A stretch of DNA of 64,000 nt, taken from positions 14,419-78,418 of IMG/VR virus record IMGVR_UViG_3300045988_111115; one strand, written 5' to 3'. Position 1 is the first letter of the stretch. Each line of letters starts with the position of its first letter. This DNA comes from a virus. A model generated the notes under the pieces. The model made no database searches. It was not told the DNA's origin and worked only from the letters and a program-made list of their open reading frames with translations. The position numbers were made by a program, and so were the translations under genes. Shown here one piece after another: positions 1 through 59,672 of this stretch.

Positions 1-52
1 TACAGACAATAATATAATTGCTTATACAGAGGATATAACCTCTACTCAAAAG

Positions 53-436
53 ATGTTATGTAAGTCTACTAAGATATGTTCAGAATATCCTAATAAGTTG
101 GATAAACCACTGTTTGATTATGTACTGCTCAATGCACAAAAAGTACTAAGAGAAATAACAGACCTTGACAACTTATCAGGTGGTGAAGCTAAGTTAGCTT
201 TAAAGACTTTTCCTCAATGCGGGCAAGACAGTTATTTCAAAGTGCAAGATGAGGGAGTACATTTTATGTGCTATGTAATTATGGAAGAGAACTACTTTCA
301 TAATGAGTATAAGACACAAGAGGGTTATACTAAGATGAGCATTTATGACCTTGATAAAGATACTCTTGACCCTGTATCTAAAGTGTTTTTAAAGCACTTT
401 ACACACGTACAGAAAGGGGGAAGTGCAAATGTCTGA
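53..436 (+). CDS. hypothetical protein
   Basis: Long + strand ORF in a co-directional gene train. No motif recognised. Confidence 0.35.
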   Translation: MLCKSTKICSEYPNKLDKPLFDYVLLNAQKVLREITDLDNLSGGEAKLALKTFPQCGQDSYFKVQDEGVHFMCYVIMEENYFHNEYKTQEGYTKMSIYDLDKDTLDPVSKVFLKHFTHVQKGGSANV

Positions 437-812
437 TAACTATACTACAACAGGCACGTTTACAAACATTGATATAACACACAAGCCAAAACGTATGCAG
501 GGAGAAAACTTTAAGAATACACCCTTACATATAGGCTTAAAAGATGAAGACCAACCTATTACAGCAAAGGAGAAAGGTACTGTACCTACATACATTACAC
601 TTGAAAGAGCCATAGCATACTTTGAGGAGCAGTCTAACTCTTTAACCCCTGAGGGTAAGTTCTATAGTGCCACTGCTGATTGGTTGAAAGAACTCTTAGA
701 GATAAGAGCCAATAAGGTAGTAAATGTTACAAAAGCACTTGTAGCAACAGCAAAGGATAAATTTATAGAAGACCTTGCTACTACTAATGAAAGTGGGGGA
801 AGTAAAAGATGA
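423..812 (+). CDS. hypothetical protein
   Basis: ORF overlaps its neighbours by a few nt, the usual phage operon packing. No motif recognised. Confidence 0.35.
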   Translation: MQMSDNYTTTGTFTNIDITHKPKRMQGENFKNTPLHIGLKDEDQPITAKEKGTVPTYITLERAIAYFEEQSNSLTPEGKFYSATADWLKELLEIRANKVVNVTKALVATAKDKFIEDLATTNESGGSKR

Positions 813-1396
813 AAGCTGAGATTAAGGTAAATGATAAAGTAATTGAAGTAGAACTAACTACAGAACAAATACAAGAGTTAGGACTATTTGATGAGCCAAA
901 GAAAAAGAAAACGGGTTTTGAGCCTACATCAATAGGCGGAGACTATTATATTATAACAACTCATAATGTTGAAAAGCATATTAATAGAGGGAATGGAAAT
1001 GATATTCAGAATCGGGCTTCAGATAACTATTTCACAAGTTATGACCTTGCTTCTGATTTAAGAAGAGCCTTTCATCTTAATCTCCGAATGTTAAAGTGGC
1101 AAGCAGAAAATGATGAACCTGCATATGCTTATGACATAGAGGGCTTTGCTTTTGGCCGTTATATTATAACTTACTTCTATAATGCTAATACCTATACAGG
1201 AGACTTGTGTCCTAAGTGTGTTAAGCCTGAATACAGTTCACCATTTATGGTGTACTTTAGTTCTGAAGAGAAAGCGTGGAAAGCTATAGAAGAGTTTAGA
1301 AGAGATTTAATATGGTATCACGAAGCATTTAAGTGTAGAAGAGATACTATAACCGAAAGTGATATAAGAGTGAAAAATGGAGGGCAATTATGTTGA
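809..1396 (+). CDS. hypothetical protein
   Basis: ORF translationally coupled to its neighbours. CPKC motif only. Confidence 0.35.
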   Translation: MKAEIKVNDKVIEVELTTEQIQELGLFDEPKKKKTGFEPTSIGGDYYIITTHNVEKHINRGNGNDIQNRASDNYFTSYDLASDLRRAFHLNLRMLKWQAENDEPAYAYDIEGFAFGRYIITYFYNANTYTGDLCPKCVKPEYSSPFMVYFSSEEKAWKAIEEFRRDLIWYHEAFKCRRDTITESDIRVKNGGQLC

Positions 1397-2262
1397 GGAA
1401 GATTATACCCTTAGTCAATAACCTAAGTAAGCTTTATATCCTTAATGAAGAGGGTGTACCTTGTTTTGTACACTCTAAGGAATACCCTAATGTTGCAACA
1501 CAACCAATAGTGCCACGCTTCAATGGTTATACCTGTGTTGAAGACTATATGAAAGATGATATAAAATACATAGTACCTATGACCGCAAAAGAGATTGAAA
1601 GCAAGGAAGAGCAGTTAGAAAAGTTGCAGAGTAAAGACTTCTATGTTGAAGAAAAGTTTGACGGTACAAGAGGTATAATGCACTTTTATACTTGTGACCC
1701 AAAAACACTTAGAGAAAAGTACTACCCGAACTATAAGGAAGATGAAAAGCAGTATCTAAGTGTATGCCTGTTACAAGGAAGCTCGATTGTAGACGGTAAA
1801 CGCAGAATTTATGACTACTTTCTGACACACTCTAAGTCTAAGGATAGAGTAGACTTTTTAAAGCAAGAGTATGGTATAGGAGGGTATACAGGTTATCCCA
1901 TATCTTGTAGCTTTAACAGTAAAGGTTTTACTATAGATATGCCAAGTGACAAAGAGATAAATGGACGTTATAGTAAAAGCATAACTTACACGTGGAAAAC
2001 TATTGCCGAAGAGATACAACACCTGATAGATATAAAGCACTACTATGCACAAAAGGGTTATACAAGAGTGTTCAGTAGACGTGAAAGCAAAAAGACAGGT
2101 TGGCTCACTGAGAATACAGATAGTGTACCACAGCTAAGAGATTTAAACCGACCTGAACTTGCAGGTACTATAATTGATGGTGAGATGTTTATACCTAATC
2201 AACCTTTTAAAGCTGTAGCAAGTACCCTAAACTGTAAGTGGGTAACTAAACTGTTACAATAA
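1390..2262 (+). CDS. ATP-dependent DNA ligase, exon 1 (adenylation domain; interrupted by intron)
   Basis: Motif I KxDGxR is present as EEKFDGTRG, and motif III as IIDGEMF. The ORF then runs into a stop at 2260-2262 and the ligase motifs resume at 4798 onward. The true 3' end of exon 1 is probably a little upstream of 2262. Confidence 0.7.
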   Translation: MLRKIIPLVNNLSKLYILNEEGVPCFVHSKEYPNVATQPIVPRFNGYTCVEDYMKDDIKYIVPMTAKEIESKEEQLEKLQSKDFYVEEKFDGTRGIMHFYTCDPKTLREKYYPNYKEDEKQYLSVCLLQGSSIVDGKRRIYDYFLTHSKSKDRVDFLKQEYGIGGYTGYPISCSFNSKGFTIDMPSDKEINGRYSKSITYTWKTIAEEIQHLIDIKHYYAQKGYTRVFSRRESKKTGWLTENTDSVPQLRDLNRPELAGTIIDGEMFIPNQPFKAVASTLNCKWVTKLLQ

Positions 2263-2843
2263 ATATAAACAAATCTGCACAAATTTGTGCAGTGGTATAG
2301 ATTTTATTAAGCAGAAAGCCCTTTGTATCGAGAAATCGGTGCAAACTCAGTGTTAATTGCTTTTAATCCCTAAAGCCTTACACCTAAACAGTAATCCGAA
2401 AGGATAAACTGAACGGTACGAAAGTAGAAAAAACGTAAGGATGGCATATGGTGAAATAAAAGTACCTCAGTGTTAATGATAGGACAGATAATTTCTGACG
2501 TGACACATTAAAAACGGGTATCCTAAGTGCTTAAGCAATGGGTGTTTAGCAGCGAAAGCCCTAAGTCTTTTTATAAGATATGGGACACGTTCAACGACTA
2601 TCTCCTTGAGGGAGAGTAAAACCACAAGCTAATGGTGGAAGAAAAATACTGCCCCACACTACTATGTGGGTGAAGATATAGTCTACGCTTATGTGAAAGC
2701 ATAAGAGGTCTGTCGGTAACGATAAGACTGCTATAAGGTTGCGACTTATAGTGAATGAGATAAATATATACATATTTAATTTATTTATATAAATCTATTG
2801 ACAACAATATAAAATTATGATACCATAGATATATAAAAATAAT
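2263..2843 (+). ncRNA. group I intron ribozyme core (5' part of IStron)
   Basis: R-like element GTTCAACGACTATC at 2589-2602 and S-like element AAGATATAGTC at 2673-2683 give a P7 pairing of GACTA with TAGTC. Candidate P and Q elements sit at ~2356-2370 and ~2393-2410. The ~480 nt stretch is GC-enriched, non-coding and structured. Confidence 0.6.
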
Positions 2844-2858
2844 ATGGTGGTGAATTTT

Positions 2859-3479
2859 ATGGAATTGTTAAGCATAGGTAAATTTGCTAAAACTGTAGGA
2901 GTAACTACGACAACATTAAGAAGAATGCATCAAAGTGGCGAGTTAATTCCTGCACATATTTCAAATGGTGGAACAAGGTATTATTCTACGGAACAATTAA
3001 AATTATTCCAATCAAGTAATAATGAAAGAATAGTTATTGGTTATTGTAGAGTAAGTACTCCATCACAAAAAGACGATTTAGAAACACAAGTACAAAATGT
3101 TAAATCATATATGTATGCTAAGGGATATAAATTTGACATTATAAAAGACATTGGTTCGGGTATAAATTATAAAAAGAAAGGTTTAAAAGAACTCATTAAT
3201 AGGATAGAAAATAATGAAGTTTCTAAAGTTGTAATTTTATATAAAGATAGGTTGATTCGATTTGGATTTGAATTAATTGAATATTTGTGTGAAATTAATA
3301 ACGTAGAAATAGAAGTTATAGACAATTCGGAATGTAGTAAAGAGAAAGAATTAACAGATGATTTAATTCAAATTATTACAGTTTTTGCGAATAGATTGTA
3401 TGGACAACGTTCAAAGAAAACAAAACGACTTATTAATGAGGTGAGAAACAATGCTGATAACAAAGAAAATCAGACTTAA
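2859..3479 (+). CDS. tnpA: IS607-family transposase TnpA (serine recombinase with N-terminal MerR-like HTH)
   Basis: HTH FAKTVGVTTTTLRRM and resolvase catalytic region YCRVSTPSQ. The ORF track starts at 2844, but the in-frame ATG at 2859 has the better RBS. Overlaps tnpB as in IS607. Confidence 0.8.
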   Translation: MELLSIGKFAKTVGVTTTTLRRMHQSGELIPAHISNGGTRYYSTEQLKLFQSSNNERIVIGYCRVSTPSQKDDLETQVQNVKSYMYAKGYKFDIIKDIGSGINYKKKGLKELINRIENNEVSKVVILYKDRLIRFGFELIEYLCEINNVEIEVIDNSECSKEKELTDDLIQIITVFANRLYGQRSKKTKRLINEVRNNADNKENQT

Positions 3480-4629
3480 ACCGACAACTGAACAAGAAAT
3501 ATTATTTCGTAAAAGTGCTGGTGTATCGAGATGGGCATATAATTTCTTTTTAGGTGAGAATGAACGAATATACAGAGAGTATATTGACAATGGAAAAGTT
3601 GGTAAGAAAAGCATTAGCGAAGGTGATGTTAGGAAATACATAAATAATATATTAAAACCAACTACTCATTCTTGGCTCAAAGAAGTTGGAAGTAATGTAA
3701 TGAAACAAGGTGTTAAAGATGCCAGTCTTGCATTGCAAAGATATTTTAAAGGCTTGTCTGGAAAGCCCAAATTTAAGTCCAAACATAAAGACAGACCGAG
3801 TTTTTATGTCAATTATGAAAGTCTTTCAAGAAAACAAGGTGGTTTTCAAGGAGAAAAAATAGGCTTTGTAAAAACATCGGAGGCACTTCCTAAACTAAAT
3901 AAAAATGAAAAATATTCAAATCCAAGAATAACGTTTGACGGAAAATATTGGTATCTATCTGTTGGCTATGAAGTGCAAGAAAGCACAGTGGAATTAACAG
4001 ACGAAAGTTTAGGAATAGATTTAGGAGTTAAAGATTTAGCAATTTGTTCAAACGGAAAGGTTTATAAAAATATAAACAAAACTCAAAGAGTTAAAAAGTT
4101 AGAGAAGAAACTAAAACGTGAACAGCGAAAATTATCAAGGAAGATTGAAAATAATATTCAATCATATAAATCAAATAGAAACCCTATATACAAAAGACCT
4201 TTGAAAGAATGTCAAAACATTCAAAAACAAAATCGTCTAATACGAAATATACATAGAAAACTTGCAAATATTCGTCAAAACCATTTACATCAAACAACGA
4301 CAGAGATAGTGAAAACCAAACCATCTCGAATAGTTATGGAAAGTTTAAATGTAAGTGGAATGATGAAAAATAAACATTTATCAAAAGCAATACAACAACA
4401 AAAATTTTATGAATTCAAAAGACAAATTGAATATAAGTCAAAACTAAATGGGATTGAATTCATTCAAGTTGATAAGTTTTATCCAAGTAGTAAAACTTGT
4501 AGTTGTTGTGGAAATATCAAGAAAGATTTAAAACTTTCGGACAGAATGTATAAATGTGATGTTTGTGGTCTGGTTATTGACCGAGATTACAATGCAAGTA
4601 TAAATTTAGCAAATTATGAAGTTATATAA
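3451..4629 (+). CDS. tnpB: TnpB (OrfB) RuvC-like RNA-guided nuclease of an IS605/IS607-family element
   Basis: N-terminal IRLKPTxEQ motif, RuvC-I IDLGVKD, and C-terminal zinc finger CSCCGN...CDVCG followed by DRDYNASINL (RuvC-III). Confidence 0.8.
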   Translation: MLITKKIRLKPTTEQEILFRKSAGVSRWAYNFFLGENERIYREYIDNGKVGKKSISEGDVRKYINNILKPTTHSWLKEVGSNVMKQGVKDASLALQRYFKGLSGKPKFKSKHKDRPSFYVNYESLSRKQGGFQGEKIGFVKTSEALPKLNKNEKYSNPRITFDGKYWYLSVGYEVQESTVELTDESLGIDLGVKDLAICSNGKVYKNINKTQRVKKLEKKLKREQRKLSRKIENNIQSYKSNRNPIYKRPLKECQNIQKQNRLIRNIHRKLANIRQNHLHQTTTEIVKTKPSRIVMESLNVSGMMKNKHLSKAIQQQKFYEFKRQIEYKSKLNGIEFIQVDKFYPSSKTCSCCGNIKKDLKLSDRMYKCDVCGLVIDRDYNASINLANYEVI

Positions 4630-4797
4630 ATTCACTTAAAAGAATTATATAACTATGTACCTATCGCTATTAGGGAATTTACGTCTATGGAGTGTCATAA
4701 CAAATGAAAGTAGCTACGGCAAAATCAGACACGTTGAAGTAGAAAGTCTTAATCGTGAGATAAGGCACAGTATAGATTTATATAAATTAGTTGTAAT

Positions 4798-5814
4798 TTG
4801 TATATGTTTATCATAGCGGATAAAGCTATAACAAGACAGCTTGAATTAGGTGGTGTAGTATTCCACGCTTTTGATATACTTTTCTTTAAAGGTATTGACT
4901 TACGTAAAATGCCTTTGGAAAGACGTAAAGTGTATCTGCATATAGTATGTGATACTTTAAATTCACCTTTTGTGAAAGAGGTAAAGTACTATGATGAAGA
5001 CGGAATAGTAGTACCCCTTTTAAGTATGTCTGATAGGGATAGAATATTGAATAACCCTGAACTATATCCGAATTTAGCTGAGGATATAAAGCACTATATG
5101 TCAAATGCACTGTATTATGAGGAAGATGAGAGTAATGACGGTGAGCCTTTACCTTTTAGAATTTCCAAAGCTTCTTACTATGAGTATATAGTCTTTACAG
5201 GAGGAGAGGGAGTAGTAGTAAAGCCTAAGACAGGTAAGTACTATCACAAAAGAGGTAGAGAGTATGAGAAGATAAAGAAGTTCCTAACAAGAGAATGTAT
5301 TATCTGTGGTTTTACCCCACCTACACAAGCGTATAAGGGTAAGTTCCCTGATGATAGTTGGTCCTATTGGATAGACAATGAGACAGGAGAAAAGCAAGAC
5401 CCTGAAGAGTGTGCTAATATGTCAGCTAAGAAGTTACAAAAGACTTGCACACCTGTTACAAAGTACTACTTTGAAAATTGGGTAGGTAATGTAGAGTATG
5501 GAGTGCTAATCTCCGAAGATGAGATTAAGAAGTTACCTAAGAACAAAAATCACGATATTAGGACAGTCGAAGTATTGACAGACTATAATGACAGAAAGTA
5601 TCTAAAAGTACTTGTTGTAGGTGAATGTAGTGGTTTTGATGATGATGAGAGAGCGTGGTTTACTGAACATAAAGATGAAGTAATCGGTCAAGTAATCGAA
5701 GTCAAAGCTAATGAGATATTCAGAGATACAGGTAAACTTAGACACCCTCGCTATTTGAGACTAAGACCTGATAAGTCGGCTGAACAGTGTACCTTTAAAG
5801 AGCATATACTTTAA
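4798..5814 (+). CDS. ATP-dependent DNA ligase, exon 2 (motifs IIIa-VI)
   Basis: FHAFDILFF (motif IIIa), PLERRK, EGVVVKP (motif IV) and EKIKK (motif V). The real 5' exon boundary is probably 10-30 nt downstream of 4798. Confidence 0.7.
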   Translation: MYMFIIADKAITRQLELGGVVFHAFDILFFKGIDLRKMPLERRKVYLHIVCDTLNSPFVKEVKYYDEDGIVVPLLSMSDRDRILNNPELYPNLAEDIKHYMSNALYYEEDESNDGEPLPFRISKASYYEYIVFTGGEGVVVKPKTGKYYHKRGREYEKIKKFLTRECIICGFTPPTQAYKGKFPDDSWSYWIDNETGEKQDPEECANMSAKKLQKTCTPVTKYYFENWVGNVEYGVLISEDEIKKLPKNKNHDIRTVEVLTDYNDRKYLKVLVVGECSGFDDDERAWFTEHKDEVIGQVIEVKANEIFRDTGKLRHPRYLRLRPDKSAEQCTFKEHIL

Positions 5815-5823
5815 ATTTTAAGC

Positions 5824-5839
5824 AAAGCTATTTACAAAT
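5824..5839 (+). promoter_or_regulatory. 16-mer AAAGCTATTTACAAAT, identical copy at 17268-17283; candidate late-gene promoter/activator site
   Basis: Exact 16/16 repeat upstream of the terminase and tape-measure genes. It includes a TACAAAT -10-like hexamer. Confidence 0.4.
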
Positions 5840-5859
5840 TCGGTAAATATGTATATAAT

Positions 5860-5895
5860 AGTCCTGTAATAAATTCATTGCAGGACTATTTTTTA
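5860..5895 (+). terminator. hairpin AGTCCTG-N14-CAGGACT followed by a T-run, in the terminase leader
   Basis: 7-bp perfect stem followed by ATTTTTT. It lies between the ligase stop and the terminase RBS. Confidence 0.5.
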
Positions 5896-5919
5896 TGCAG
5901 TATTTAAGGAGGAGTAACA

Positions 5920-7623
5920 TTGCGTAGACTAAAGATTGAATTTATATTTTTATTTATTTACATTTTAATTTTTGTAGATAGCCATTTGCAGAGGTTATCT
6001 AATTCTATATTTACACTAAAAGCAAATGCAGGTAGAGTAACTACAGCAGAGTTAGTAAACAGAATATATAGTTTTTGTGAAGTACTTACAGGTAAAGTGC
6101 TTTACCCTTATCAAGAGCAGTTCTCAAAGCGTGTTATACGTTCCATTTTAGAGAATGACGGTGAAGAAATAACATCATTATTCGCCCGACAGTCAGGTAA
6201 GTCTGAAACAATATCAGATACAGTATCAGGACTTATGGTTATACTTCCGATACTTGCTAATATGCCAATGTTCGCAGATGATAAACGACTTATGATGTTT
6301 AAAGAGGGTTTTACAGTAGGTATATTCGCACCTGGACAGCACCAAGCACAAATCACATACAACCGTATCCGTTCAAGGTTGACAGGTAAGACTGCACAGA
6401 AAGTACTGCACGACCCCGAAATTATGCTTAACTTCACTACTTCAAACGGTACTACTTGCTCATTAAGTAATGGCTCATTCGTTACAGCTATTTCAGCTTC
6501 CGACCAATCAAACATTGAGGGTGAAAGTTTTATGCTAATCATATGTGAAGAGTGTCAGGATATAAGTAACTTTAAGATAACTAAGTCTATTCACCCTATG
6601 GGTGCGGCTTACAATGCTACTATTGTTAAGATAGGTACTGCTACAACCTTTAAAGGAAACTTCTACTTTGCTATACAGAGAAATAAAAAGAACGACGCTT
6701 TAAAATCTTCACATATCCGCAATCACTTTGAGTATGATTGGAAGATAGCCGCCAAGTACAACCCTAAGTATGCAAGGTATGTAGAGAAAGAGAAGTTGCG
6801 TTTAGGAGAAAACTCAGATGAGTTCAGAATGTCATATTGTCTTGAATGGATTATAGAAAGAGGTATGTTTATAGATATAGATATATTTGAACAGAATAAT
6901 GGTGAGCCATTACTTGATAGAGTAATGTATGATAAAAAAGCCGTACATTGTGCAGGTATAGATATAGGTGGAGCAAATGATGATACCATTATAACTGAAT
7001 GTGAAGTAGATTGGAGTACACCTGTTATCAGTGAAACACGTACTGACCCTGAAACAGGAGAAGATATGATGTATGAGTGTTACAACAGCTACTTAAAAGA
7101 TTGGTTTTGTATCCATAATGTACCAAACCACGAGGAGCAATATCCTATGATTATAGACTACCTGAGCCACTTTAATAATGCAAGGGTGGTATGTGACGCT
7201 ACAAGAGAGCGAAGTGTGTCAGATAGACTACAGGCAAACTTAAAGTGTGAAGTAATACCTTTTGTATTCACCCCAAAGAGTAAGTCGGAATTATACAAGA
7301 CTTTAGAGCGTGAAATAAGTTCAGGTAGAGCGAGAGTTTGTATGTCCGAGAAAGCTAAGCAGTCAAAAGAGTATCAAGACTTTATACATCAGTTAGGAGA
7401 CCTACAAAAAGGTTGGAGAGGTAGTAACCTTGTAGTAGCACACCCTGATGAAAAGGACGCACACGACGATTACCCTGATAGTTGGGCTTTAGCAGTATGG
7501 GGCTGTACTACTAAAGGGTCTACTACAGTACCTGAAACTTTTGGTAACAGCTTTACACAGAAGACACAAAATCAAATAAAATCAAAAAGAAGTGCTAATA
7601 GACTTATGGCACGTAGAAGATAG
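5920..7623 (+). CDS. terminase large subunit
   Basis: Walker A-like ARQSGKSE, the acidic ICEECQD segment, and the nuclease-like C-terminal half. It sits immediately upstream of the portal. TTG start after AAGGAGG. Confidence 0.75.
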   Translation: MRRLKIEFIFLFIYILIFVDSHLQRLSNSIFTLKANAGRVTTAELVNRIYSFCEVLTGKVLYPYQEQFSKRVIRSILENDGEEITSLFARQSGKSETISDTVSGLMVILPILANMPMFADDKRLMMFKEGFTVGIFAPGQHQAQITYNRIRSRLTGKTAQKVLHDPEIMLNFTTSNGTTCSLSNGSFVTAISASDQSNIEGESFMLIICEECQDISNFKITKSIHPMGAAYNATIVKIGTATTFKGNFYFAIQRNKKNDALKSSHIRNHFEYDWKIAAKYNPKYARYVEKEKLRLGENSDEFRMSYCLEWIIERGMFIDIDIFEQNNGEPLLDRVMYDKKAVHCAGIDIGGANDDTIITECEVDWSTPVISETRTDPETGEDMMYECYNSYLKDWFCIHNVPNHEEQYPMIIDYLSHFNNARVVCDATRERSVSDRLQANLKCEVIPFVFTPKSKSELYKTLEREISSGRARVCMSEKAKQSKEYQDFIHQLGDLQKGWRGSNLVVAHPDEKDAHDDYPDSWALAVWGCTTKGSTTVPETFGNSFTQKTQNQIKSKRSANRLMARRR

Positions 7624-7637
7624 AGAGGAGAAGTAGT

Positions 7638-9164
7638 ATGTTAGGTTTTGAAAGAACAAGAAGTTTTAATGACCTGTCAAATGCTAATTTAGTAGGTTTA
7701 CAAGGAGAGTTAGACGCTAAGCAATCGGAGCGTTTGTCCAGAATAAGACGTTATTGGAACTTCTATGAGGGTTATCATTGGGAAGAACTTGCCGAGCAAG
7801 AGGGAACAGAAATGACAGTGAATTACTGTAGAGCCTTTGTAAACAAGTATGTGTCCTTTGAGTTAGGAGATAGCTTTACTTATGGTGTACATAAGAACGC
7901 AGAAAACGCAATAGTAACACCCGACGGTAAAACACTATTTGAGTATATAGAGAGTGTTTGGGTTGATAATAAACAGTACAACTTTTCTACAGAGTTCGGT
8001 CAAATGAAGTCTGTTACAGGCGAGAGTTGGGTACAAGTAAAATATGTAGCACAAGGTGAAGAGCCTGACCCATTTAACAAGTACCCTAACGGTAGAATAA
8101 GATTGATATTACTACCTACTCATACGGTATTCCCTGAATATGCCGAACACGACAGAGACAGACTTGTCAAGGTGACTATAATGTATATGTATGAAGCTAC
8201 TGAACAACCGACCTTTTTAAGAGGTAAAGCAAGTAAGAAGCAAGTAATATATAAGCAAGTATGGACAGATAAAGAGTGTGTTATTTACGACGGAGATAAA
8301 GAGCCACAGCATTTTGTAAACCGCTATGGATTTATACCTTTTGTTAAGACTAATAACCTTGATATAGCAGGTAAGTCAGAGGGAGTAAGCGACCTTGAAG
8401 ACCTTATCCCTTTGAACACTGCATACAACTTAAAAGAAAGTAATATGTCAGAGATACTTGACTATCACGCAGCCCCTGTAACCTTGGTATTCGGTGCTAA
8501 GATAGGTAATCTTGAAAAAGGTGCTAATAAACTATGGGGAGGTATGCCTAAAGACGCTAAAGTACAAAACCTTGAACTAAATGGTGACTTAGGTGCAAGT
8601 AGACTATTTGCAGAAAACTTAAAGCTTGCTATGTGTGAGATAGGTGGTATGCCTGAAAGTACCTTAGGTGGCTCACAGGCTATCAGTAATACAAGTGGTG
8701 TTGCACTACAGTATATGAATTTGCCACTTATTGACCGTACAAAGATTAAGAAGAACAATACAGAAGACGGAATAGAGAGAATTAATGAGATGATGTTACT
8801 TGTATCACTATATGAGGGACTAATCTTTAAGCCTGAAAATCTGCCACTAAGAGAACTACTGTACACTGAGGTAGCTATCCCTGATACACTACCTAAGGAC
8901 ACTCTTCTTGAACTACAACAGATACAGATTGAAATGCAACTTGGTCTTGAAAACCGTAAAGGTGCTATGAGAAGATTAGGTAAAGAGAATATAGAAACAT
9001 ATATGATAGAGATAGACAGAGAAAGAGAGGAACACCCTGAATTTTATGGTAGTGAAAGTCCACAACTAAACAGTGGTATGACTAACGGAGAAACACCAAA
9101 AGAGATGTACAATAAAGAAGTAAATGGTGAAAATAGAGGTCAAGCAAGAGAGACCGAATTATAA
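7638..9164 (+). CDS. portal protein
   Basis: 508 aa ORF directly after TerL with an acidic C-terminus, the usual portal position. Confidence 0.65.
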   Translation: MLGFERTRSFNDLSNANLVGLQGELDAKQSERLSRIRRYWNFYEGYHWEELAEQEGTEMTVNYCRAFVNKYVSFELGDSFTYGVHKNAENAIVTPDGKTLFEYIESVWVDNKQYNFSTEFGQMKSVTGESWVQVKYVAQGEEPDPFNKYPNGRIRLILLPTHTVFPEYAEHDRDRLVKVTIMYMYEATEQPTFLRGKASKKQVIYKQVWTDKECVIYDGDKEPQHFVNRYGFIPFVKTNNLDIAGKSEGVSDLEDLIPLNTAYNLKESNMSEILDYHAAPVTLVFGAKIGNLEKGANKLWGGMPKDAKVQNLELNGDLGASRLFAENLKLAMCEIGGMPESTLGGSQAISNTSGVALQYMNLPLIDRTKIKKNNTEDGIERINEMMLLVSLYEGLIFKPENLPLRELLYTEVAIPDTLPKDTLLELQQIQIEMQLGLENRKGAMRRLGKENIETYMIEIDREREEHPEFYGSESPQLNSGMTNGETPKEMYNKEVNGENRGQARETEL

Positions 9165-9182
9165 AAGTTTGTACCAAACCTC

Positions 9183-9211
9183 TTGACACAGTAATTTTAC
9201 TATGCTAAGAT
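9183..9211 (+). promoter_or_regulatory. sigma-70-like promoter TTGACA-17-TAAGAT
   Basis: Consensus -35 with a 17 nt spacer, upstream of the scaffold gene. Confidence 0.4.
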
Positions 9212-9242
9212 AAGTTTGTAAAAAATTTAAGGAGGAATTACA

Positions 9243-10043
9243 ATGAACACTAAAGGTAATTTTAAAGCAGAAGCAAAGGGAGCAATTAGACGTGTAATGT
9301 CAATGGTAGCACTAAGTGTATTTGCAGATGAGGGAGACCCTCAACCACCAACTAATACAGGTGCTACAAGTACTCAGCAAATCAACTATGAAGAGTTGAT
9401 TAAACAGGCAAGACAAGAAGAGAAAGATAAACTCTACGGTCAAATCAATACCCTAAAGGAACGAAACAAAGTATTAGTCGAAAGCAATAACGAAACACTT
9501 ATTAAGTGTGCAGAGTTAAAGGCTCAACTTGAAGCAGAAATCGCAAAGCAGAACAATGGGGAAAAGACAGAAGAAGTACTAAAACTTGAAAAGCGTATCA
9601 GTGAGTTGGAAGATGAGAATAAGACTTTAAAGGAAAGTACACCTGATGAAGCTACTCTAAGACAACAAATTGAAGCCGAGTTTACGGTGAAAAATCACCT
9701 AAGCACAGTTAAGGAAAAGAACAAAGACAAAGTACTTGATGTCTTTATGGACGAGATTACAGGTAACACTGTAGAAGAAATTGATAACTCTTTGGCTAAA
9801 GCTATTGAGAAGTCAGACAGTGTACGTAAGCAAGTAATCGGTGATAAGCCTGACGGTAATAAGAAACCACAGATTGGAGAAGACCCTAAAGACCCTAAGC
9901 AGAGTAAACCTGCAACACCACCTGTAGCAAACCCTAACGGCGGTAGTACAATGCCTAAAGGTTTTGACCCTGAGTATGTACGTGGCTTGCAACCTGGTAC
10001 ACCTGAGTATGAAGAGTTCAGAAAGTCATTAGGTCTACACTAA
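9243..10043 (+). CDS. scaffolding protein
   Basis: Coiled-coil protein rich in E, K and Q, located between portal and capsid. Confidence 0.6.
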   Translation: MNTKGNFKAEAKGAIRRVMSMVALSVFADEGDPQPPTNTGATSTQQINYEELIKQARQEEKDKLYGQINTLKERNKVLVESNNETLIKCAELKAQLEAEIAKQNNGEKTEEVLKLEKRISELEDENKTLKESTPDEATLRQQIEAEFTVKNHLSTVKEKNKDKVLDVFMDEITGNTVEEIDNSLAKAIEKSDSVRKQVIGDKPDGNKKPQIGEDPKDPKQSKPATPPVANPNGGSTMPKGFDPEYVRGLQPGTPEYEEFRKSLGLH

Positions 10044-10079
10044 AGACCTAACACAAATTGAAAGGAGTTTAACAAAACT

Positions 10080-11111
10080 ATGAAAAGAAACCTATTAAAG
10101 ATGATTATTACATTTATGCAGGGTCTGTTCTCAATGTTCAGTACACCTGTATTTGCTGACAGTGCTATGACAACAGCAGTTGTTGACGGTAGCGGTAATG
10201 TAAAGTTTACAGACGCTGTCCGTATGGTTTACTCAAAAGAAATTGAGTACAAGGCACTACCTGTTATGAGATTTATGCAATTCGCTCAAGTCCGTACTGA
10301 GTTGGGTGTAACACCTGGTCTGACGATAACAATGCTCACCTATAATAACCTTAAACTCGGTGGTGCATTGACAGAAATGACGAAAATGCAGACACAAGCT
10401 ATGAGTGGCTCAACAAAGCAGATTACCGTACACGAATATGGTAATGCTATCGGCTTCTCAGAACTTCTTGTACGTTCGTCATTTGATGATATTATGGCAA
10501 GTGCTACCACACTTCTTGGTCGTGACTATGCACAAGTCCTTGATTGTGAACTAAGAGACGTTGCCCTTGAGGGTACTAACATAGTTTACTCAAAGGGTAC
10601 TTCAAGAGCAGAAATTACGGCGGCAGATGTACTTCAAGTTAAGCAAATCAAGGACGCTATCGAAATTCTTGCTACAAACAACGCACCAAAAGTTGCAGGT
10701 GCTAATTGGATATGCTTTGTTCACCCACACCAAAGCCGTACTCTAAGAGACGACAGTGCTTGGATAAACGCTTCAAATTATGGTGCACCTGAACAGCTAT
10801 TTACAGGAGAAATCGGCAGAATTGATGATACACGTTTTATTGAAACAACCCTTATGTGTAATGGTGCTGTTGCTGAGGACGACCCTGCATATGTTGCAGA
10901 ACTTAAAAAGGGTGAGGGCGGAAACCTAACACCTATTTACCAAGCAGTTATTTTCGGAGAAGCTTATTATGGCATTGCTTTCTCACTTCCTGTTGAGTTG
11001 AGAGACAACGGTGTTGATGATTTCGGAAGAGAAAGAGCGTTGGCTTGGTACTCAATCTTTGGTGTAGGTAAGCTACACGACGAGTACGGTGTAGTTATTG
11101 AAACTGCCTAA
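10080..11111 (+). CDS. major capsid protein
   Basis: 343 aa ORF after the scaffold gene with a strong RBS, the HK97-like head gene position. Confidence 0.6.
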   Translation: MKRNLLKMIITFMQGLFSMFSTPVFADSAMTTAVVDGSGNVKFTDAVRMVYSKEIEYKALPVMRFMQFAQVRTELGVTPGLTITMLTYNNLKLGGALTEMTKMQTQAMSGSTKQITVHEYGNAIGFSELLVRSSFDDIMASATTLLGRDYAQVLDCELRDVALEGTNIVYSKGTSRAEITAADVLQVKQIKDAIEILATNNAPKVAGANWICFVHPHQSRTLRDDSAWINASNYGAPEQLFTGEIGRIDDTRFIETTLMCNGAVAEDDPAYVAELKKGEGGNLTPIYQAVIFGEAYYGIAFSLPVELRDNGVDDFGRERALAWYSIFGVGKLHDEYGVVIETA

Positions 11112-11135
11112 GAATTTAATAGGAGGTAAAGAGTA

Positions 11136-11447
11136 ATGGCAAAGATACCAAGTAGTAGAGGTAAGTCCTCTACAAAAGTTAGTGAAGACACTAACAATGT
11201 AACAATGGACGTTGCAGAGGAAGAGACACCCGTACAAGATACAGGTGTTACTATAGAGGGTTTAGAAGAGCAAGAGAAAAAGACTGTTGCACCTATTCCC
11301 CCTAAAAGCGTTAAGATAAAAATGGCTATGAGCCATAGATGTAACATTGGTGGCACAGTATATAACCTTGAAAAAGGTAAGACATATGTTGTACCTGAAA
11401 ATGTTAAGCACATTCTAAGTAAGTCGGGTCTACTTTTACCTCTGTAA
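11136..11447 (+). CDS. hypothetical head-associated protein
   Basis: ORF with an RBS after the capsid gene. Confidence 0.4.
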   Translation: MAKIPSSRGKSSTKVSEDTNNVTMDVAEEETPVQDTGVTIEGLEEQEKKTVAPIPPKSVKIKMAMSHRCNIGGTVYNLEKGKTYVVPENVKHILSKSGLLLPL

Positions 11448-11473
11448 TGTGACAGTTAAAGGAGGTTGTCAAT

Positions 11474-12253
11474 GTGACTAAAGAGAAGCTGATAAAGTTT
11501 TTAAAAAGTTCTATTCACATTCAAGACCCCGACATTGGAAACGATAGCAAGTACTTGTCAATGACTGATGAGGACTTAGAGTTATATTTAACAGTCGCAT
11601 TATCAAGGGACTTCTCTAAAGTAAGGTCTCTTGACGTTCTACCCGAAGCGTATGTGTACCCCTTAATTCTATTGGCGAAGAAAGAACTCTACTATACATT
11701 AGCAGTTATTGAAGCACCTCTTTATGATATGGGTGCTGATAACAATAACTACTTGAAACGTGAGCAGAGATTTAAACACTATATGGCATTAATAGAACAG
11801 GTGGATAAAGAATACAATCAGTATCAAGCTGATAACGAGACAGGCACTAATGGAACTCTAATCACTTATGATGTACTATTAGGTGATAGGTACTTTACTA
11901 AGAGATACCGAAACAAGGGTGTGGTGCCTGTCGTTTCTTTATATGCAGATGAAGTAGCTACAGACTATGTAAAGTTGTCTTGGGAGCGTGTTATCATAAA
12001 CTTTGCAGAGTTCAGAATTTATCTATCAGAGAAACCAATTTACAATCCATACGATTTGACAAACCCAATAGATAAGGACGCTGTTCTTATGTTCAAAGTA
12101 ATGGAAGATACACACAAAATGTGTCAAATAAACGACTTAAAACCTGATACTGAATACTACATCTGTATAGAATACATTGATAAGAGCGGTCTAAAAGGCT
12201 ACAGTCAAATAGTCATAGATACTACCCCCGAAGAGATAACAGGAGGTGAGTAG
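11474..12253 (+). CDS. head-tail connector/adaptor-like protein with C-terminal FN3/Ig-like domain
   Basis: FN3-like pattern VKLSWERV...KPDTEYYICIEY, in the position expected for a connector. Confidence 0.4.
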   Translation: MTKEKLIKFLKSSIHIQDPDIGNDSKYLSMTDEDLELYLTVALSRDFSKVRSLDVLPEAYVYPLILLAKKELYYTLAVIEAPLYDMGADNNNYLKREQRFKHYMALIEQVDKEYNQYQADNETGTNGTLITYDVLLGDRYFTKRYRNKGVVPVVSLYADEVATDYVKLSWERVIINFAEFRIYLSEKPIYNPYDLTNPIDKDAVLMFKVMEDTHKMCQINDLKPDTEYYICIEYIDKSGLKGYSQIVIDTTPEEITGGE

Positions 12254-50224: not shown

Positions 50225-50518
50225 ATGTTAGATAAAGAGACACCACAAATTGGAGAAGTATATAAACACTTTAAACGTGACCCTGAATTGCCTTGTACGG
50301 ATAATAGCTATTTATACATAGTAAAAGACCTTGCACAGCATACAGAGACCCACGAAGTACTTGTTATCTATCAGGCACTGTATTCACCATTTACAACCTA
50401 TGCAAGACCCTTAGAAATGTTTATGTCTATAGTTGATGAAGAAAAGTACCCTGAGCATAAGGGTGAAAGAAGATTTACACTATTAGGAGGAAACGTATAT
50501 GTGCCAAGAATTGAGTAA
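50225..50518 (+). CDS. DUF1653-like protein
   Basis: YKHFKRDP...[15 protein letters not shown] pattern. Confidence 0.4.
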
Positions 50519-51440
50519 AGAAATAAAAGACAGTGGAGACAGAACAGAGTTTGCTACAGGAGCAGTAAGAGACTTACACGAGGGTAAAGGTCGTTTTGAC
50601 CTTATCCCTCTTGATATAGTAAGTAGGATATTTAATAAAGAGTTTGAAAAGTACAACCCTGTAGCACTTGAAAAGGACTTAAAGCCTGATTATGTTTACA
50701 GGGCAGTAGACAACTTTAAGACTTCGGGTAATGTAACTACTCTTTATGTACTTGCTTACTGCTTTATAAAAAAACTTACAAGCGAGAATACTACACAAGG
50801 AAGTGCTATGTATAAAAGTACTTGGGAGTTTATGCTTGACCTTGCTATCCACTATGAAAACGGTGCTAAGAAGTATGGAGAGAATAATTGGCAGAAAGGA
50901 ATACCTGTACACTGTTGTATAGATAGTGCTTTAAGACACTATACAAAGTACAGAGCAGGTATGACTGATGAGCCACATCACGTTGCTTTTATATGGAACA
51001 TCATAACTGCCATATATGCTATGGAACAGAACAGAGAAGAACTTGACGATTATACTGTGGGCACTTCTAATACAGATGAAAGCTATACACAAGTATGGTC
51101 CAAGACTGCACCTGAAAGACTTATTCATTTAAGCTCAGCAGACGATTGGTATGATTATGCAAAGAATAGTGATGTACACGACTTTGAGAGGTTTATTGAC
51201 TATCTTAGACTATACACAGGTACATTAGACAACGCACTATACCTATACAAAAATGGAAAGCTAAGTGACCTGAAAAAAGATAACCCTCTCGATTACAAGT
51301 GGTTTGTTGATGATTGGTGTACAGGTTATGTAAGAGTTTTAATTGGTCTTATGTGTGCACAAGACTTTTTACAGTTGTCTACAGAAAGCATAAATGAGAG
51401 AGCCGAAAGAGGACTGAATGATAAAGCAAATCTATTTTAG
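50499..51440 (+). CDS. dATP/dGTP pyrophosphohydrolase-like protein
   Basis: FATGAVRD...GKGRFDLIP and [13 protein letters not shown] segments typical of the N-terminal domain of that family. Confidence 0.4.
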
Positions 51441-54009: not shown

Positions 54010-54294
54010 GTGAAAGAATTAAAGCAGATTAAAGTATCAGGTAGCACTTCGGTACATCAACTTGCAAGCAGTATTGTAAAGTTCATCAATGAGGGTTATG
54101 ATATTGAAGTAAGAGCCTTAGGTGCAAGTGCTGTAAACCAAATGTACAAAGGTGTAACCATTGCACGAGGTACTGTAGCACAGAAAGGTAAAGACCTTTT
54201 AATTAAACCAGGTTTTGCTGATGTTACCGAAACAGACAAAGACGGTAATGATAAGTCTAAGACAGTAATGGTTGCACATCTTGTCATTGGCTAA
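54010..54294 (+). CDS. spoVS: SpoVS-family protein (stage V sporulation protein S homolog)
   Basis: Recalled similarity to the SpoVS consensus along the full length: LKVS..S...LA..I...I.E....E..A.GA.A.NQ..K...IARG. Confidence 0.65.
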   Translation: MKELKQIKVSGSTSVHQLASSIVKFINEGYDIEVRALGASAVNQMYKGVTIARGTVAQKGKDLLIKPGFADVTETDKDGNDKSKTVMVAHLVIG

Positions 54295-54307
54295 GGAGGA
54301 CAGCAGA

Positions 54308-54697
54308 ATGAAGAACATCACAGTAACAAAGAGATTTACTTTTGAAGCAAGTCATAACCTTATTAAGTATGAGGGTAAGTGCTCTAACTTACACGGTCAT
54401 TCCTATAAGTTAGAGGTATCTTTTACAAGTGAGTCGAGATTGAATAGCCAAGGTATGGTGTTAGACTTTAATCTCATTGATGAGATAGTAAAACCTATAG
54501 TAGATAGGTACGACCACCACTATTTAAACGACTTCTTCTCTAACCCGACCGCAGAAGTTATGGCAGGAAGCATTTTTAATGAGATACAGTACATCTTAAG
54601 TGATAGGAATAACATTCCGAACTTTGAGGGTATTTACATTTCAGAAGTTAAGCTGTGGGAGACTGAGAAATGCTTTGTGTCCGTAAAGGGGGATTGA
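54308..54697 (+). CDS. queD: 6-carboxytetrahydropterin synthase QueD
   Basis: CxxxHGH motif (CSNLHGHSYKLEV). ATG 54308 follows GGAGGA. Confidence 0.75.
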   Translation: MKNITVTKRFTFEASHNLIKYEGKCSNLHGHSYKLEVSFTSESRLNSQGMVLDFNLIDEIVKPIVDRYDHHYLNDFFSNPTAEVMAGSIFNEIQYILSDRNNIPNFEGIYISEVKLWETEKCFVSVKGD

Positions 54698-54837: not shown

Positions 54838-55488
54838 ATGCTATACTATGATGAGGTGTTCCAAAGTATTCAAGGTGAGAGTACTTCCGCAGGTCTACCT
54901 TGTGTATTTGTAAGACTGTTTGGTTGTAATGTAGGTTGTTCCTATTGCGACCAACCACAAAAGAAAGAGCAGAAAAAGCGTATAAGCGTTGACAAACTCA
55001 TAAATAAAATACTAAGCTACCATATACCAAGGGTATGTATTACAGGAGGAGAGCCTTTATTGCAACAGGAAATATATCCTGTAGTATATGACCTTGTTAA
55101 AAGGGGTTATGATGTATCTATTGAGACAAGCGGTTGTGTTCCGATTGATAACGACGGTTATGTCAGAAAACATAAATACATTATGGACGTTAAGTGCCCA
55201 AGTAGCAAAGTATCACATAAGAATATTTTTGATAACCTTGCTAAACTGCATTTAATAGATGAGGTTAAGTACGTTATTAAGGATAGAGCTGACTATGATT
55301 TTGCAAGGGACATTATGAGAAAGTACCCTACAAATGCAAAGGTACTTTTCAGTCCTGTAATGGAACTTGATGAAAATGGTACTTGGAAATGTGCCGTTTC
55401 TAAAGACCTTGTTAAGTGGGTATTAGAAGACGGGCTAACCAATGTACGTATTCAAGTACAACTACATAAATTTTTGGAGGTGCAGTAA
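54838..55488 (+). CDS. queE: 7-carboxy-7-deazaguanine synthase QueE (radical SAM)
   Basis: CNVGCSYCD cluster and GGEPLL. Confidence 0.75.
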   Translation: MLYYDEVFQSIQGESTSAGLPCVFVRLFGCNVGCSYCDQPQKKEQKKRISVDKLINKILSYHIPRVCITGGEPLLQQEIYPVVYDLVKRGYDVSIETSGCVPIDNDGYVRKHKYIMDVKCPSSKVSHKNIFDNLAKLHLIDEVKYVIKDRADYDFARDIMRKYPTNAKVLFSPVMELDENGTWKCAVSKDLVKWVLEDGLTNVRIQVQLHKFLEVQ

Positions 55489-59111: not shown

Positions 59112-59672
59112 GTGCAAGAGATGATTAATAATAAAGTTGAAGAGATAAAGAAACACGTTGAAGCTATTGCGGATATACTCGGTATTGAGAAAACAGAGAG
59201 TAACGAAAATACCCCATTAAGAGTGGCTAAGATGTACTGTAATGAACTATTTGTCAACAGGAATAATGATAATATTGAGGAATTAAATTCTCGTATGAAA
59301 GTATTTTCTGCTGACGGTAATTCATCACCTGTTAAGATGGACAATATACCTTTTAACTCTGTTTGTGAACATCATTGGCTACCATTCTTCGGAACAGTGT
59401 CAGTACACTATGAGCCACAAGATAAGATAATAGGTCTTTCTAAAATTCCGAGAGTGGTTAAGTACTTTTCAAAGAAGCCACAGCTACAAGAGAGGTTGAC
59501 ACAAGAGATAGGGGAATATCTTGTATCGGTATTAAAACCTAAGTCTCTGACCGTAACAATAACTGCTACACATACTTGTGTTATGTGCAGAGGTATTGAA
59601 AGTCCTTGTGATACCACTACGGAGTTTAAATACAATGCTTCGAGAGGGGAGATTAATAGTGAAACTACCTAA
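59112..59672 (+). CDS. folE: GTP cyclohydrolase I FolE
   Basis: CEHH zinc motif, SKIPR, and an overall FolE layout. Confidence 0.75.
   Translation: MQEMINNKVEEIKKHVEAIADILGIEKTESNENTPLRVAKMYCNELFVNRNNDNIEELNSRMKVFSADGNSSPVKMDNIPFNSVCEHHWLPFFGTVSVHYEPQDKIIGLSKIPRVVKYFSKKPQLQERLTQEIGEYLVSVLKPKSLTVTITATHTCVMCRGIESPCDTTTEFKYNASRGEINSETT

Follow-up and report, generated by a model that had tools for sequence, protein, structure and literature searches.

A group B IStron in the ATP-dependent DNA ligase gene of an uncultured phage

In IMG/VR virus record IMGVR_UViG_3300045988_111115, positions 14,419 to 78,418 (this stretch of 64,000 nucleotides (nt) is hereafter the window), an ATP-dependent DNA ligase gene lies in two pieces on either side of an insert of 2577 nt. 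An earlier interpretation, made from the letters alone (the sequence-only reading), had proposed an IStron-like chimera of a group I intron and an IS607 tnpA/tnpB element. Here, we conclude with a probability of about 0.88 that an autonomous IStron of group B (IS607 family) occupies window 2243-4819, having moved by recent transposition into the ligase gene on its sense strand; the IStron interpretation is supported by group B landmarks, covariation and relatives.

Ligase alleles and the class of the insert

The open reading frames (ORFs) at 1390-2262 and 4798-5814 each match Pfam DNA_ligase_A_M, the adenylation domain of ATP-dependent ligases. Translation places motifs I (KFDGTRG) and III (IIDGEMF) upstream of the insert and motifs IIIa (FHAFDIL), IV (EGVVVK) and V (YEKIKK) downstream of it, which bears out the split described by the sequence-only reading. 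The boundaries that it gave, 2262 and 4798, hold as ORF ends but not as exon junctions. Alignment of the ligase with an intron-less homolog (protein P0001, contig L027) fixes the junctions at 2242^2243 and 4819^4820 (^ marks a junction), with 2241-4817 or 2242-4818 equally possible owing to a shared GG. Deletion of 2243-4819 in silico yields a single ORF of 615 amino acids (aa), reading …STLNCKW-D-KAITRQ…, and only then do all the nucleotidyltransferase motifs (I, III, IIIa, IV, V) and the OB domain share one frame. The joined ligase is 100% identical to P0001 across all 615 residues. The protein search returned 648 homologs, the best 60 of which are uninterrupted (532-615 aa). As gene callers predict no splicing, the full-length P0001 requires an uninterrupted allele.

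That allele lies on L027, a phage contig from ERR3153805 whose neighbouring genes are the same as those of the window and whose flanks are 99.8% identical to window 1-2245 and 99.5% identical to 4818-11813. Its empty site reads AACTGTAAGTGGG^ATAAAGCTATAAC (i.e., AAGTGGG^ATAAAGC), and comparison of the filled and empty alleles shows an exact insertion 3' of TGGG with no target-site duplication. The earlier expectation that precise removal regenerates an intact ligase is thus confirmed by both the restored ORF and the empty site. No difference separates the two alleles from -1908 to +205, which makes the comparison uninformative on the tract around the site. TGGG adjoins the left end of the element at all 10 distinct insertion sites examined.

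The same locus could also arise if a repeat shared with the host genome had been misassembled into the ligase gene; identical copies do occur in bacterial contigs from the same kind of sample, and repeats can yield chimeric joins. However, both junctions keep the insertion grammar of the element (TGGG^ on the left, CGG^ on the right), the flanks are contiguous to the base in the empty allele, and three sources or contigs have yielded split-ligase products, so that we regard an assembly artefact as very improbable.

The ligase itself has an unusual stretch at residues ~128-284, where ~167 residues separate motifs I and III compared with ~38 positions in the Pfam profile. Judged from this alignment, the stretch would imply an insertion of roughly 130 aa. 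Shorter ligase homologs (437-491 aa) cover only ~64% of the query.

As for the class of the element, megablast aligned window 2236-4746 with Clostridium phage c-st at 73.6% identity, over two genes annotated as transposases; no closer relative than this copy, CbISt3, was found among annotated phages. A full-length copy on plasmid NC_015417.1 (C. botulinum BKT015925) shares 72.3% nucleotide identity across 97% of the element. Group B IStrons have been described as carrying a 5' intron, insertion-sequence (IS) ORFs placed after P9.2 and a GAAYRA motif, an AU-rich inverted-repeat stem around the ORFs, a target of AGGG, TGGG or GAGG, and a 3' end CGG (Tourasse et al. 2014, PMC4227781). The following group B landmarks are present in the window element: 1) the target is TGGG, which ends in GG, 2) the first element base is U and the exon ends in G, 3) GAAUGA follows P9.2 on its 3' side and the ORFs come afterwards, 4) an AU-rich inverted repeat surrounds the ORFs (2778-2798/4772-4792) and is the longest of the region, 5) the terminal bases are CGG (left TGGG^, right GCGG^), and 6) the host gene is exactly restored on removal. 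In line with the IS607 family, the target contains GG and is not duplicated, and the element is found at different loci.

CbISt3 (= ISCbt4) is a 2559-nt group B IStron of phage c-st with an IA2 intron and IS607-type ORF A and ORF B (Tourasse et al. 2014, PMC4227781). The two elements are alike in being phage-borne, in their 5' IA2-type intron, full tnpA and tnpB, length of about 2.56 kb, TGGG, CGG and RAGATH-18 right end. They differ in host gene, phage lineage and right-end subtype (…CGTATCGG in CbISt3, …CATAGCGG in the window element), and while c-st is a plasmid-like prophage of C. botulinum, the window phage is an uncultured gut phage with its own replisome. The view that IStrons are known mainly from Clostridioides chromosomes, so that a phage copy would be notable, does not survive this comparison, as CbISt3 and CbISt4 have been described in C. 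botulinum phages c-st and D-1873 (PMC4227781).

CboIStron, from plasmid p1BKT015925 (NC_015417.1; Zedaveinyte et al., bioRxiv 10.1101/2023.11.20.567912; PMC13521648), has the same architecture, the same target-adjacent motif (TAM) TGGG and the same terminal CGG, with 79.9% (TnpA) and 67.5% (TnpB) protein identity. Splicing, TnpA excision and integration, TnpB cleavage and antagonism between intron and guide RNA have been demonstrated for it (10.1101/2023.11.20.567912; PMC13521648). It differs in insertion context and terminal-stem sequence, and its activities have been shown, whereas the window element is known from sequence. ISFba1 (PMC11061315; structure 8iaz) has a TnpB that aligns end to end with that of the window and a guide RNA lying wholly downstream of tnpB, with a RAGATH-18 core and flanks; unlike the window element, it is a plain IS607 without an intron and has the TAM AGGAG, while in the window the TAM is TGGG and the 3' end of the scaffold doubles as the predicted 3' splice site. 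CdISt1 and the other group A IStrons (Clostridioides difficile) likewise join an IA2 group I intron to a TnpB-bearing IS, with ORFs after P9.2. According to PMC4227781, group A is marked by an IS200/IS605 tyrosine (HUH) TnpA, the target TTGAT, the end TCAG and, at the 5' splice site, the canonical U; these features are lacking in the window element, which fits group B.

Overall, the closest relatives (CbISt3, CboIStron) and the intron/guide-RNA conflict are already published, and the earlier claim of novelty is overstated. The window element is a clear new example of an element type known already, phages included, and it leaves the understanding of how IStrons work unchanged. What is new here is its 100% identity to copies at another site in bacterial contigs and its 98% identity to a copy in the lysin gene of another phage.

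The group I ribozyme

The left end of the element comprises ~600 nt without a long ORF and is conserved and covarying in 15 homologs. The R element GTTCAACGACTATC (2589-2602), the S element AAGATATAGTC (2673-2683) and the P7 pairing GACTA/TAGTC lie exactly where the sequence-only reading had placed them, and the core pattern matches 0 of 100 shuffled windows. The pattern invariant in the first five homologs led to 19 genomic loci, which together with viral loci gave 15 distinct full-length left ends. Given these homologs and no prior structure, RNAalifold recovered P2, P3, an extended P4-P6 domain, P7.1, P7.2, P9, P9.1 and P9.2. Double changes occur in 70 of the 115 consensus pairs. Pairs were then counted on a hand-written structure, i.e., the RNAalifold fold with P7 added as a pseudoknot: 95.8% of cells are paired, against 35-43% when the partners are slid by 1-3 columns, and 70 pairs have double changes, compared with 32.7±3.3 in shuffles, none of which reached that number (0/500). 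P3 covaries (3/7 pairs) and is knotted with the invariant P7. For P8, column-wise covariation failed because of register shifts between subfamilies, and per-sequence folding was used instead; although the sequence varies, a hairpin forms at the same place in 15/15 homologs. The window copy forms 114 of 115 scoreable pairs. The IA2 peripheral elements P7.1, P7.2, P9.1 and P9.2 are present, and in the window copy P9 and P9.1 end in GNRA loops (GAAA and GUAA, respectively).

Were the R- and S-like motifs coincidental, the insert would be a plain IS607 element without a ribozyme and the ligase a pseudogene, an outcome that the sequence-only reading had tied to a failed covariance-model search. Formally, this is what Rfam 15 returned, with no group I intron (Intron_gpI) at the gathering threshold nor at E<=10. 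However, the negative is uninformative because published, experimentally spliced IStrons are missed too: in a control at E<=1, the group I intron was also missed in CboIStron, CbISt3 and the related loci L003 and L034, while RAGATH-18 was found in 4/4. A custom covariance model spanning P7-P9.2, built from 11 relatives with the window, L002 and L034 left out, matches window 2590-2761 full-length at 187.5 bits (E about 2e-43; next match E 0.08). The pair counts, the Rfam control and the custom model refute a plain IS607 insertion, whose chances we consider negligible in view of a 600-nt non-coding left end that covaries over 15 homologs in a P2-P9.2 architecture including the P3/P7 pseudoknot. 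By this comparative evidence, the ribozyme fold is real and intact in the window copy, and the silence of Rfam is a sensitivity limit of the library; its group I model is unusable for ruling IStrons in or out. At the far end, the element closes with GCGG, which puts the terminal G of the predicted 3' splice site at 4819.

We noticed a 12-nt exact direct repeat, CTCAGTGTTAAT, at 2346-2357 and 2466-2477, which is not conserved in CbISt3. Copy 1 contains the 5' strand of P3 and copy 2 lies in the P5 extension, where it could pair alternatively with the 3' strand of P3. Two further loci carry related introns. In a Lachnospiraceae metagenome-assembled genome (MAG; L040), positions 1485-1643 and 3074-3364 hold a related group I intron without tnpB, broken by ~1.4 kb between profile positions ~221 and 250 (P5 extension), and this intron may carry a different ORF in another loop. 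In the phage group of L003 (1959-2359; equivalent to L032 1885-2262 from Hominimerdicola aceti), the intron profile matches a second time, much more weakly (E about 1e-12), ~850 nt upstream of the IStron, and this match may be a separate, diverged group I intron in the neighbouring gene.

Transposition proteins, guide RNA and the fate of the transcript

The sequence-only reading had described an overlapping serine-recombinase tnpA and a tnpB with a complete RuvC and zinc finger, and Pfam, the 8iaz alignment and residue positions corroborate both genes, which overlap by 29 nt. TnpA matches the IS607-family TnpA structures 6dgc and 6dgb, and S67 of the BKT015925 TnpA aligns with its Ser71. In TnpB, the RuvC triad (D190, E297, D377) and the zinc finger (C350/C353, C369/C372) are conserved; the protein aligns end to end with the ISFba1 IS607 TnpB structure 8iaz (E 3e-78), and Asp190 is the equivalent of D189 in the BKT015925 TnpB. 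Both BKT015925 residues, S67 and D189, agree in numbering with published mutants. To judge from these domains and residues, TnpA and TnpB are intact.

The promoter-like site upstream of tnpA has 10/12 consensus matches plus an extended TG, but such sites are no more numerous in the region than expected by chance. TTGAC is conserved at this position in several homologs, and the site is only suggestive of a promoter. An active promoter here could allow transcription of tnpA, tnpB and the guide RNA without the ribozyme, which would bias those transcripts towards the guide-RNA fate. The terminator scan found no + strand terminator-like site inside the element, consistent with read-through transcription; the hairpin 3' of the ligase stop is the sole + strand terminator-like site downstream of the ligase start (1200-6000 scanned).

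A right end of ~170 nt where a TnpB guide RNA would lie had been anticipated, and the non-coding right end indeed measures 190 nt (4630-4819), with a RAGATH-18 match at 73.5 bits that starts 55 nt past the tnpB stop. RAGATH-18 is the guide-RNA core of IS607 TnpBs and is flanked by ~50 nt on the 5' side and 60 nt on the 3' side, followed by a 20-nt guide (Ren et al. 2024, PMC11061315). The layout in the window agrees with this published right-end RNA (reRNA): the tnpB stop (4629) and RAGATH-18 are followed by a 74-nt 3' flank ending with CGG at 4819 and then by exon 2. Across nine aligned right ends, conservation ends exactly at CGG, and the following 20 nt are unrelated among copies. The predicted guide target exists, as the empty site of L027 equals TGGG followed by ATAAAGCTATAACAAGACAG, and within the window its first 16 nt match perfectly at one place only. 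In the filled allele, the guide sequence is preceded by GCGG, which differs from the TGGG TAM at -3, the most discriminating TAM position in the Cbo study (bioRxiv 10.1101/2023.11.20.567912). As such, the element should not cut itself. TGGG is also both the CboTnpA target and the CboTnpB TAM (10.1101/2023.11.20.567912), and the terminal CGG is needed for splicing, transposition and guide-RNA functions in relatives (PMC13521648).

Helix 2759-2772/4799-4812, which belongs to the AU-rich stem around the ORFs, is 97.6% paired over nine elements with 3 compensatory pairs, and it extends through 2778-2798/4772-4792 in the subfamily of the window element. The guide RNA would instead use a local hairpin, 4772-4788/4795-4811 (its terminal stem-loop; 88.7% paired). 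The two folds are mutually exclusive because strand 4799-4811 is common to both, making 4772-4812 the physical site of the conflict between intron and guide RNA. The conflict between splicing and TnpB-guided cleavage proposed by the sequence-only reading therefore stands, while its novelty does not, since such a conflict has been shown experimentally for relatives (10.1101/2023.11.20.567912; PMC13521648).

The following scheme is modelled on experimentally studied relatives at 72% nucleotide identity, which splice, excise and cut in experiments (10.1101/2023.11.20.567912; PMC13521648). The ligase transcript would read through the element; the ribozyme would fold, and the AU-rich stem 2759-2798/4772-4812 would bring the terminal G4819 to the core. 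Splicing would then join exon 1 to exon 2 into a ligase mRNA with the joint …CTGTAAGTGGG^ATAAAGCTATAAC…. Alternatively, the 3' end would fold as the guide RNA and be bound by TnpB. The two RNA fates exclude each other, both because splicing cuts between scaffold and guide and because of the strand shared by the two folds. TnpB with its guide would cleave TGGG plus ATAAAGCTATAACAAGACAG, a target present in the empty ligase allele or in the donor joint once TnpA has excised the element, and recombination would re-copy the element into the cut site. The junction of the TnpA-excised circle would read …CATAGCGG^TAACTAAAC….

By extension, the IStron might mediate RNA-guided homing or exclusion between phage genomes in competition, with TnpB cutting the IStron-less ligase allele in a co-infection and the phage RecA copying the element in, and with 7-deazaguanine modification at the G-rich TAM as a possible counter. 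We offer this as a tentative idea and consider it doubtful. The IStron-less target allele does occur in nature, with flanks 99.5-99.8% identical. If true, this would be homing as in T-even homing endonucleases, yet reprogrammable at every new insertion. Classical phage group I introns (T4 td, Twort orf142) are IA-type, self-splicing and located in phage DNA-metabolism genes, and a homing endonuclease cuts the intron-less allele. The window element is similarly an IA-type intron in a phage DNA-metabolism gene with a nuclease that would target the intron-less allele. In contrast, TnpB is RNA-guided and would be reprogrammed by the following exon, and the serine recombinase adds transposition, so that the element is not bound to one homing site.

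Table 1. Coordinates of the features assigned in the window.
Feature	Position	Strand	Basis or remark
DNA ligase exon 1	1390-2242	+	284 codons + 1 nt; motifs I, III; Pfam DNA_ligase_A_M
Insertion target TGGG, also TnpB TAM	2239-2242	+	GGG is the candidate 5'-exon strand of P1
Complete group B (IS607-type) IStron, 2577 nt, no target-site duplication	2243-4819	+	Empty allele, other copies, 72-74% relatives
Group I ribozyme (IA2-like), 516 nt	2243-2758	+	Covariation and custom covariance model
Candidate internal guide CCC	2319-2321	+	Would pair with exon GGG in P1
P2	2322-2345	+	Group I ribozyme helix
P3	2348-2354/2645-2651	+	Group I ribozyme helix
P4-P6 domain	2358-2590	+	Group I ribozyme
P7 GACTA/TAGTC	2596-2600/2679-2683	+	Group I ribozyme core
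P7.1	2601-2615	+	Group I ribozyme helix
P7.2	2622-2638	+	Group I ribozyme helix
P8	2653-2658/2665-2670	+	Group I ribozyme helix
P9	2688-2705	+	Group I ribozyme helix
P9.1	2707-2729	+	Group I ribozyme helix
P9.2	2730-2752	+	Group I ribozyme helix
GAAUGA	2753-2758	+	Motif after P9.2
5' arm of AU-rich inverted-repeat stem closing the ORF-containing loop	2759-2798	+	Inverted-repeat search, helix conservation
Promoter-like site TTGACA-17 nt-TG-TACCAT	2798-2826	+	Upstream of tnpA, in 5' inverted-repeat arm
tnpA, IS607-type serine recombinase, 211 aa	2844-3479	+	MerR HTH and Resolvase (Pfam); catalytic Ser71 in RVS
tnpB, RNA-guided nuclease, 392 aa	3451-4629	+	HTH_OrfB_IS605, OrfB_IS605, Cas12f1-like TNB (Pfam)
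Predicted omega RNA/reRNA scaffold: 5' flank, RAGATH-18 core, 3' flank to CGG	4643-4819	+	5' edge approximate
RAGATH-18 core, Rfam RF03064	4684-4745	+	73.5 bits, gathering score 44.9, E 7e-13, full-length
3' arm of inverted-repeat stem, alternatively local hairpin	4772-4812	+	Inverted-repeat search, covariation
Terminal CGG: 3' splice site (predicted), transposon end, last bases of scaffold	4817-4819	+	Junction and right-end comparison
Predicted 20-nt guide ATAAAGCTATAACAAGACAG, first bases of exon 2	4820-4839	+	Directly 3' of scaffold
DNA ligase exon 2	4820-5814	+	Motifs IIIa, IV, V; Pfam DNA_ligase_A_M, DNA_ligase_A_C, OB_2
Terminator-like hairpin 3' of ligase stop	5857-5890	+	Terminator scan
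ORFs of preQ0-pathway and dATP/dGTP diphosphohydrolase region	50499-51440, 54272-54697, 54838-55488, 56557-58251, 59112-59672		

Mobility, age and phage context

Copies of the element occur at several other sites. On a different viral contig (L002), a copy 98.1% identical follows CATTGGG in an amidase-like lysin gene, and its removal restores a 342-aa frame. The identical TnpB protein is on record from 114 contigs, the longest of 3.04 Mb. In ten long contigs (L067-L076), the element is 99.8-100.000% identical over the full 2577 nt at a third site. These contigs are bacterial, and the site lies in prophage-like regions, ~385 nt downstream of a tape-measure-like gene, with the flank GAACCTTGGG^ARACCAAGTTG; it is the commonest site of the element, is intergenic, and removal restores no long ORF there. 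At least 6 distinct flanks accompany the right-end type of the window in metagenomes. The genome scan found only a relative with an 80% TnpB, in an uncultured Clostridium MAG (L034), which does not identify the phage host. Uninterrupted ligase is represented by at least 8 sequence variants on about 13 contigs, and split ligase by 3 contigs. Look-ups of the split-ligase fragments yielded no entries, and scans of viral contigs found no match for the filled junction and none for the empty one. The 100% identity with copies at another site makes the ligase insertion very recent, and it is the minority state.

The commonest site has some features of its own. At locus position ~3292, it reads GAACCTTGGG^A(A/G)ACCAAGTTG, an imperfect palindrome (AACCTTGG…CCAAGTT), so that the insertion appears to sit within hairpin-like intergenic sequence, and it adjoins genes for Bro-N/ANT, a zeta-toxin and a 2920-aa NlpC/P60 protein.

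Across the family, element removal restores a sense-strand ORF (143-1103 aa) at 8 of 10 distinct sites and an antisense ORF at none, and the orientation is sense at 8/8 intragenic sites. This fits selection for, or a bias towards, spliceable insertions. All 35 large ORFs in the window are on the + strand. Taken with the absence of a + strand terminator-like site within the element, this makes splicing of the ligase transcript likely.

Several points weigh against a working IStron in the ligase gene. 1) The last base of the 5' exon is G in place of the U that canonically forms the U-G pair of P1, although a G-ending 5' exon has been reported for all group B IStrons, which still splice (PMC4227781). 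2) The candidate P1 (GGG/CCC) is invariant across homologs and thus beyond the reach of covariation, and the partner of the first intron base showed no covariation in pair counts over the 15 homologs. 3) Relatives splice with efficiencies of anywhere from about 2% to 80%, under the influence of the 3' exon (10.1101/2023.11.20.567912; PMC13521648), and splicing, excision and cleavage by the window element itself are inferred from such relatives. 4) The local guide-RNA hairpin lacks significant covariation, being indistinguishable from shuffles, and remains a predicted structure. 5) The filled allele is represented by 3 contigs, which may not be independent, against about 13 with the empty allele, and the 100.000% identity means that the insertion is too recent for selection to have tested the split ligase. 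6) DNA modified with 7-deazaguanine, as the gene content described below suggests, may impair TnpB or TnpA at the G-rich TGGG target.

Some of these points bear on whether the insert is a genuine IStron that splices here too poorly to supply ligase, the filled allele then being a fresh ligase knock-out that is tolerated via the host ligase or is a transient dead end. The identity to the donor-type copy leaves no time for purifying selection, the filled allele is rare, persistence does not need splicing given that the commonest site is intergenic, and the relative CseIStron-2 splices only about 2%, with a strong effect of the 3' exon on efficiency (10.1101/2023.11.20.567912; PMC13521648). However, the ribozyme fold is complete in the window copy, the insertion is in the sense orientation and restores the frame exactly, the intragenic sites of the family are sense without exception, and the filled allele sits on a long phage contig (longest on record 78 kb), suggesting a replicating genome. 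We therefore consider a functionally dead insertion quite unlikely and favour an autonomous, recently transposed IStron. With a donor-type copy that is 100% identical and a phage gene on record in filled as well as empty form, the IStron is caught just after a jump, and the locus provides a ready-made system for studying splicing rescue of a phage replication gene, TnpB homing between phages and the resistance of modified DNA to TnpB.

The phage is uncultured, its terminase being 49% identical to that of Bacillus phage BCD7, and it encodes its own helicases, primase, Pol A, RecA, UvrD and ThyX. We noticed a complete preQ0 (7-deazaguanine) pathway, comprising GTP cyclohydrolase I, PTPS/QueD, a QueE-like radical SAM protein and QueC fused to a radical SAM domain, and a protein with a dATP/dGTP diphosphohydrolase domain is also encoded. 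No DpdA/TGT was identified among the window ORFs, which include a 703-aa ORF (59578-61689) with no Pfam match. From this gene content, the guanines of the phage DNA are probably modified.

Finally, 12 metagenome contigs (L050-L053, L055-L059, L061, L063-L065; L062 is a variant) share a site with the flank ATATGCAATACTGCAAGTTTTGCG. In the seven viewed whole, the element is represented by its last 386-513 nt only, with the TnpB C-terminus, the RAGATH-18 scaffold and CGG and with no intron or left end; the best match of the remaining contigs is likewise restricted to the 3' end. The sequence at this site resembles a remnant truncated at its 5' end, or else a solo guide RNA, that is fixed in a common gut genome.

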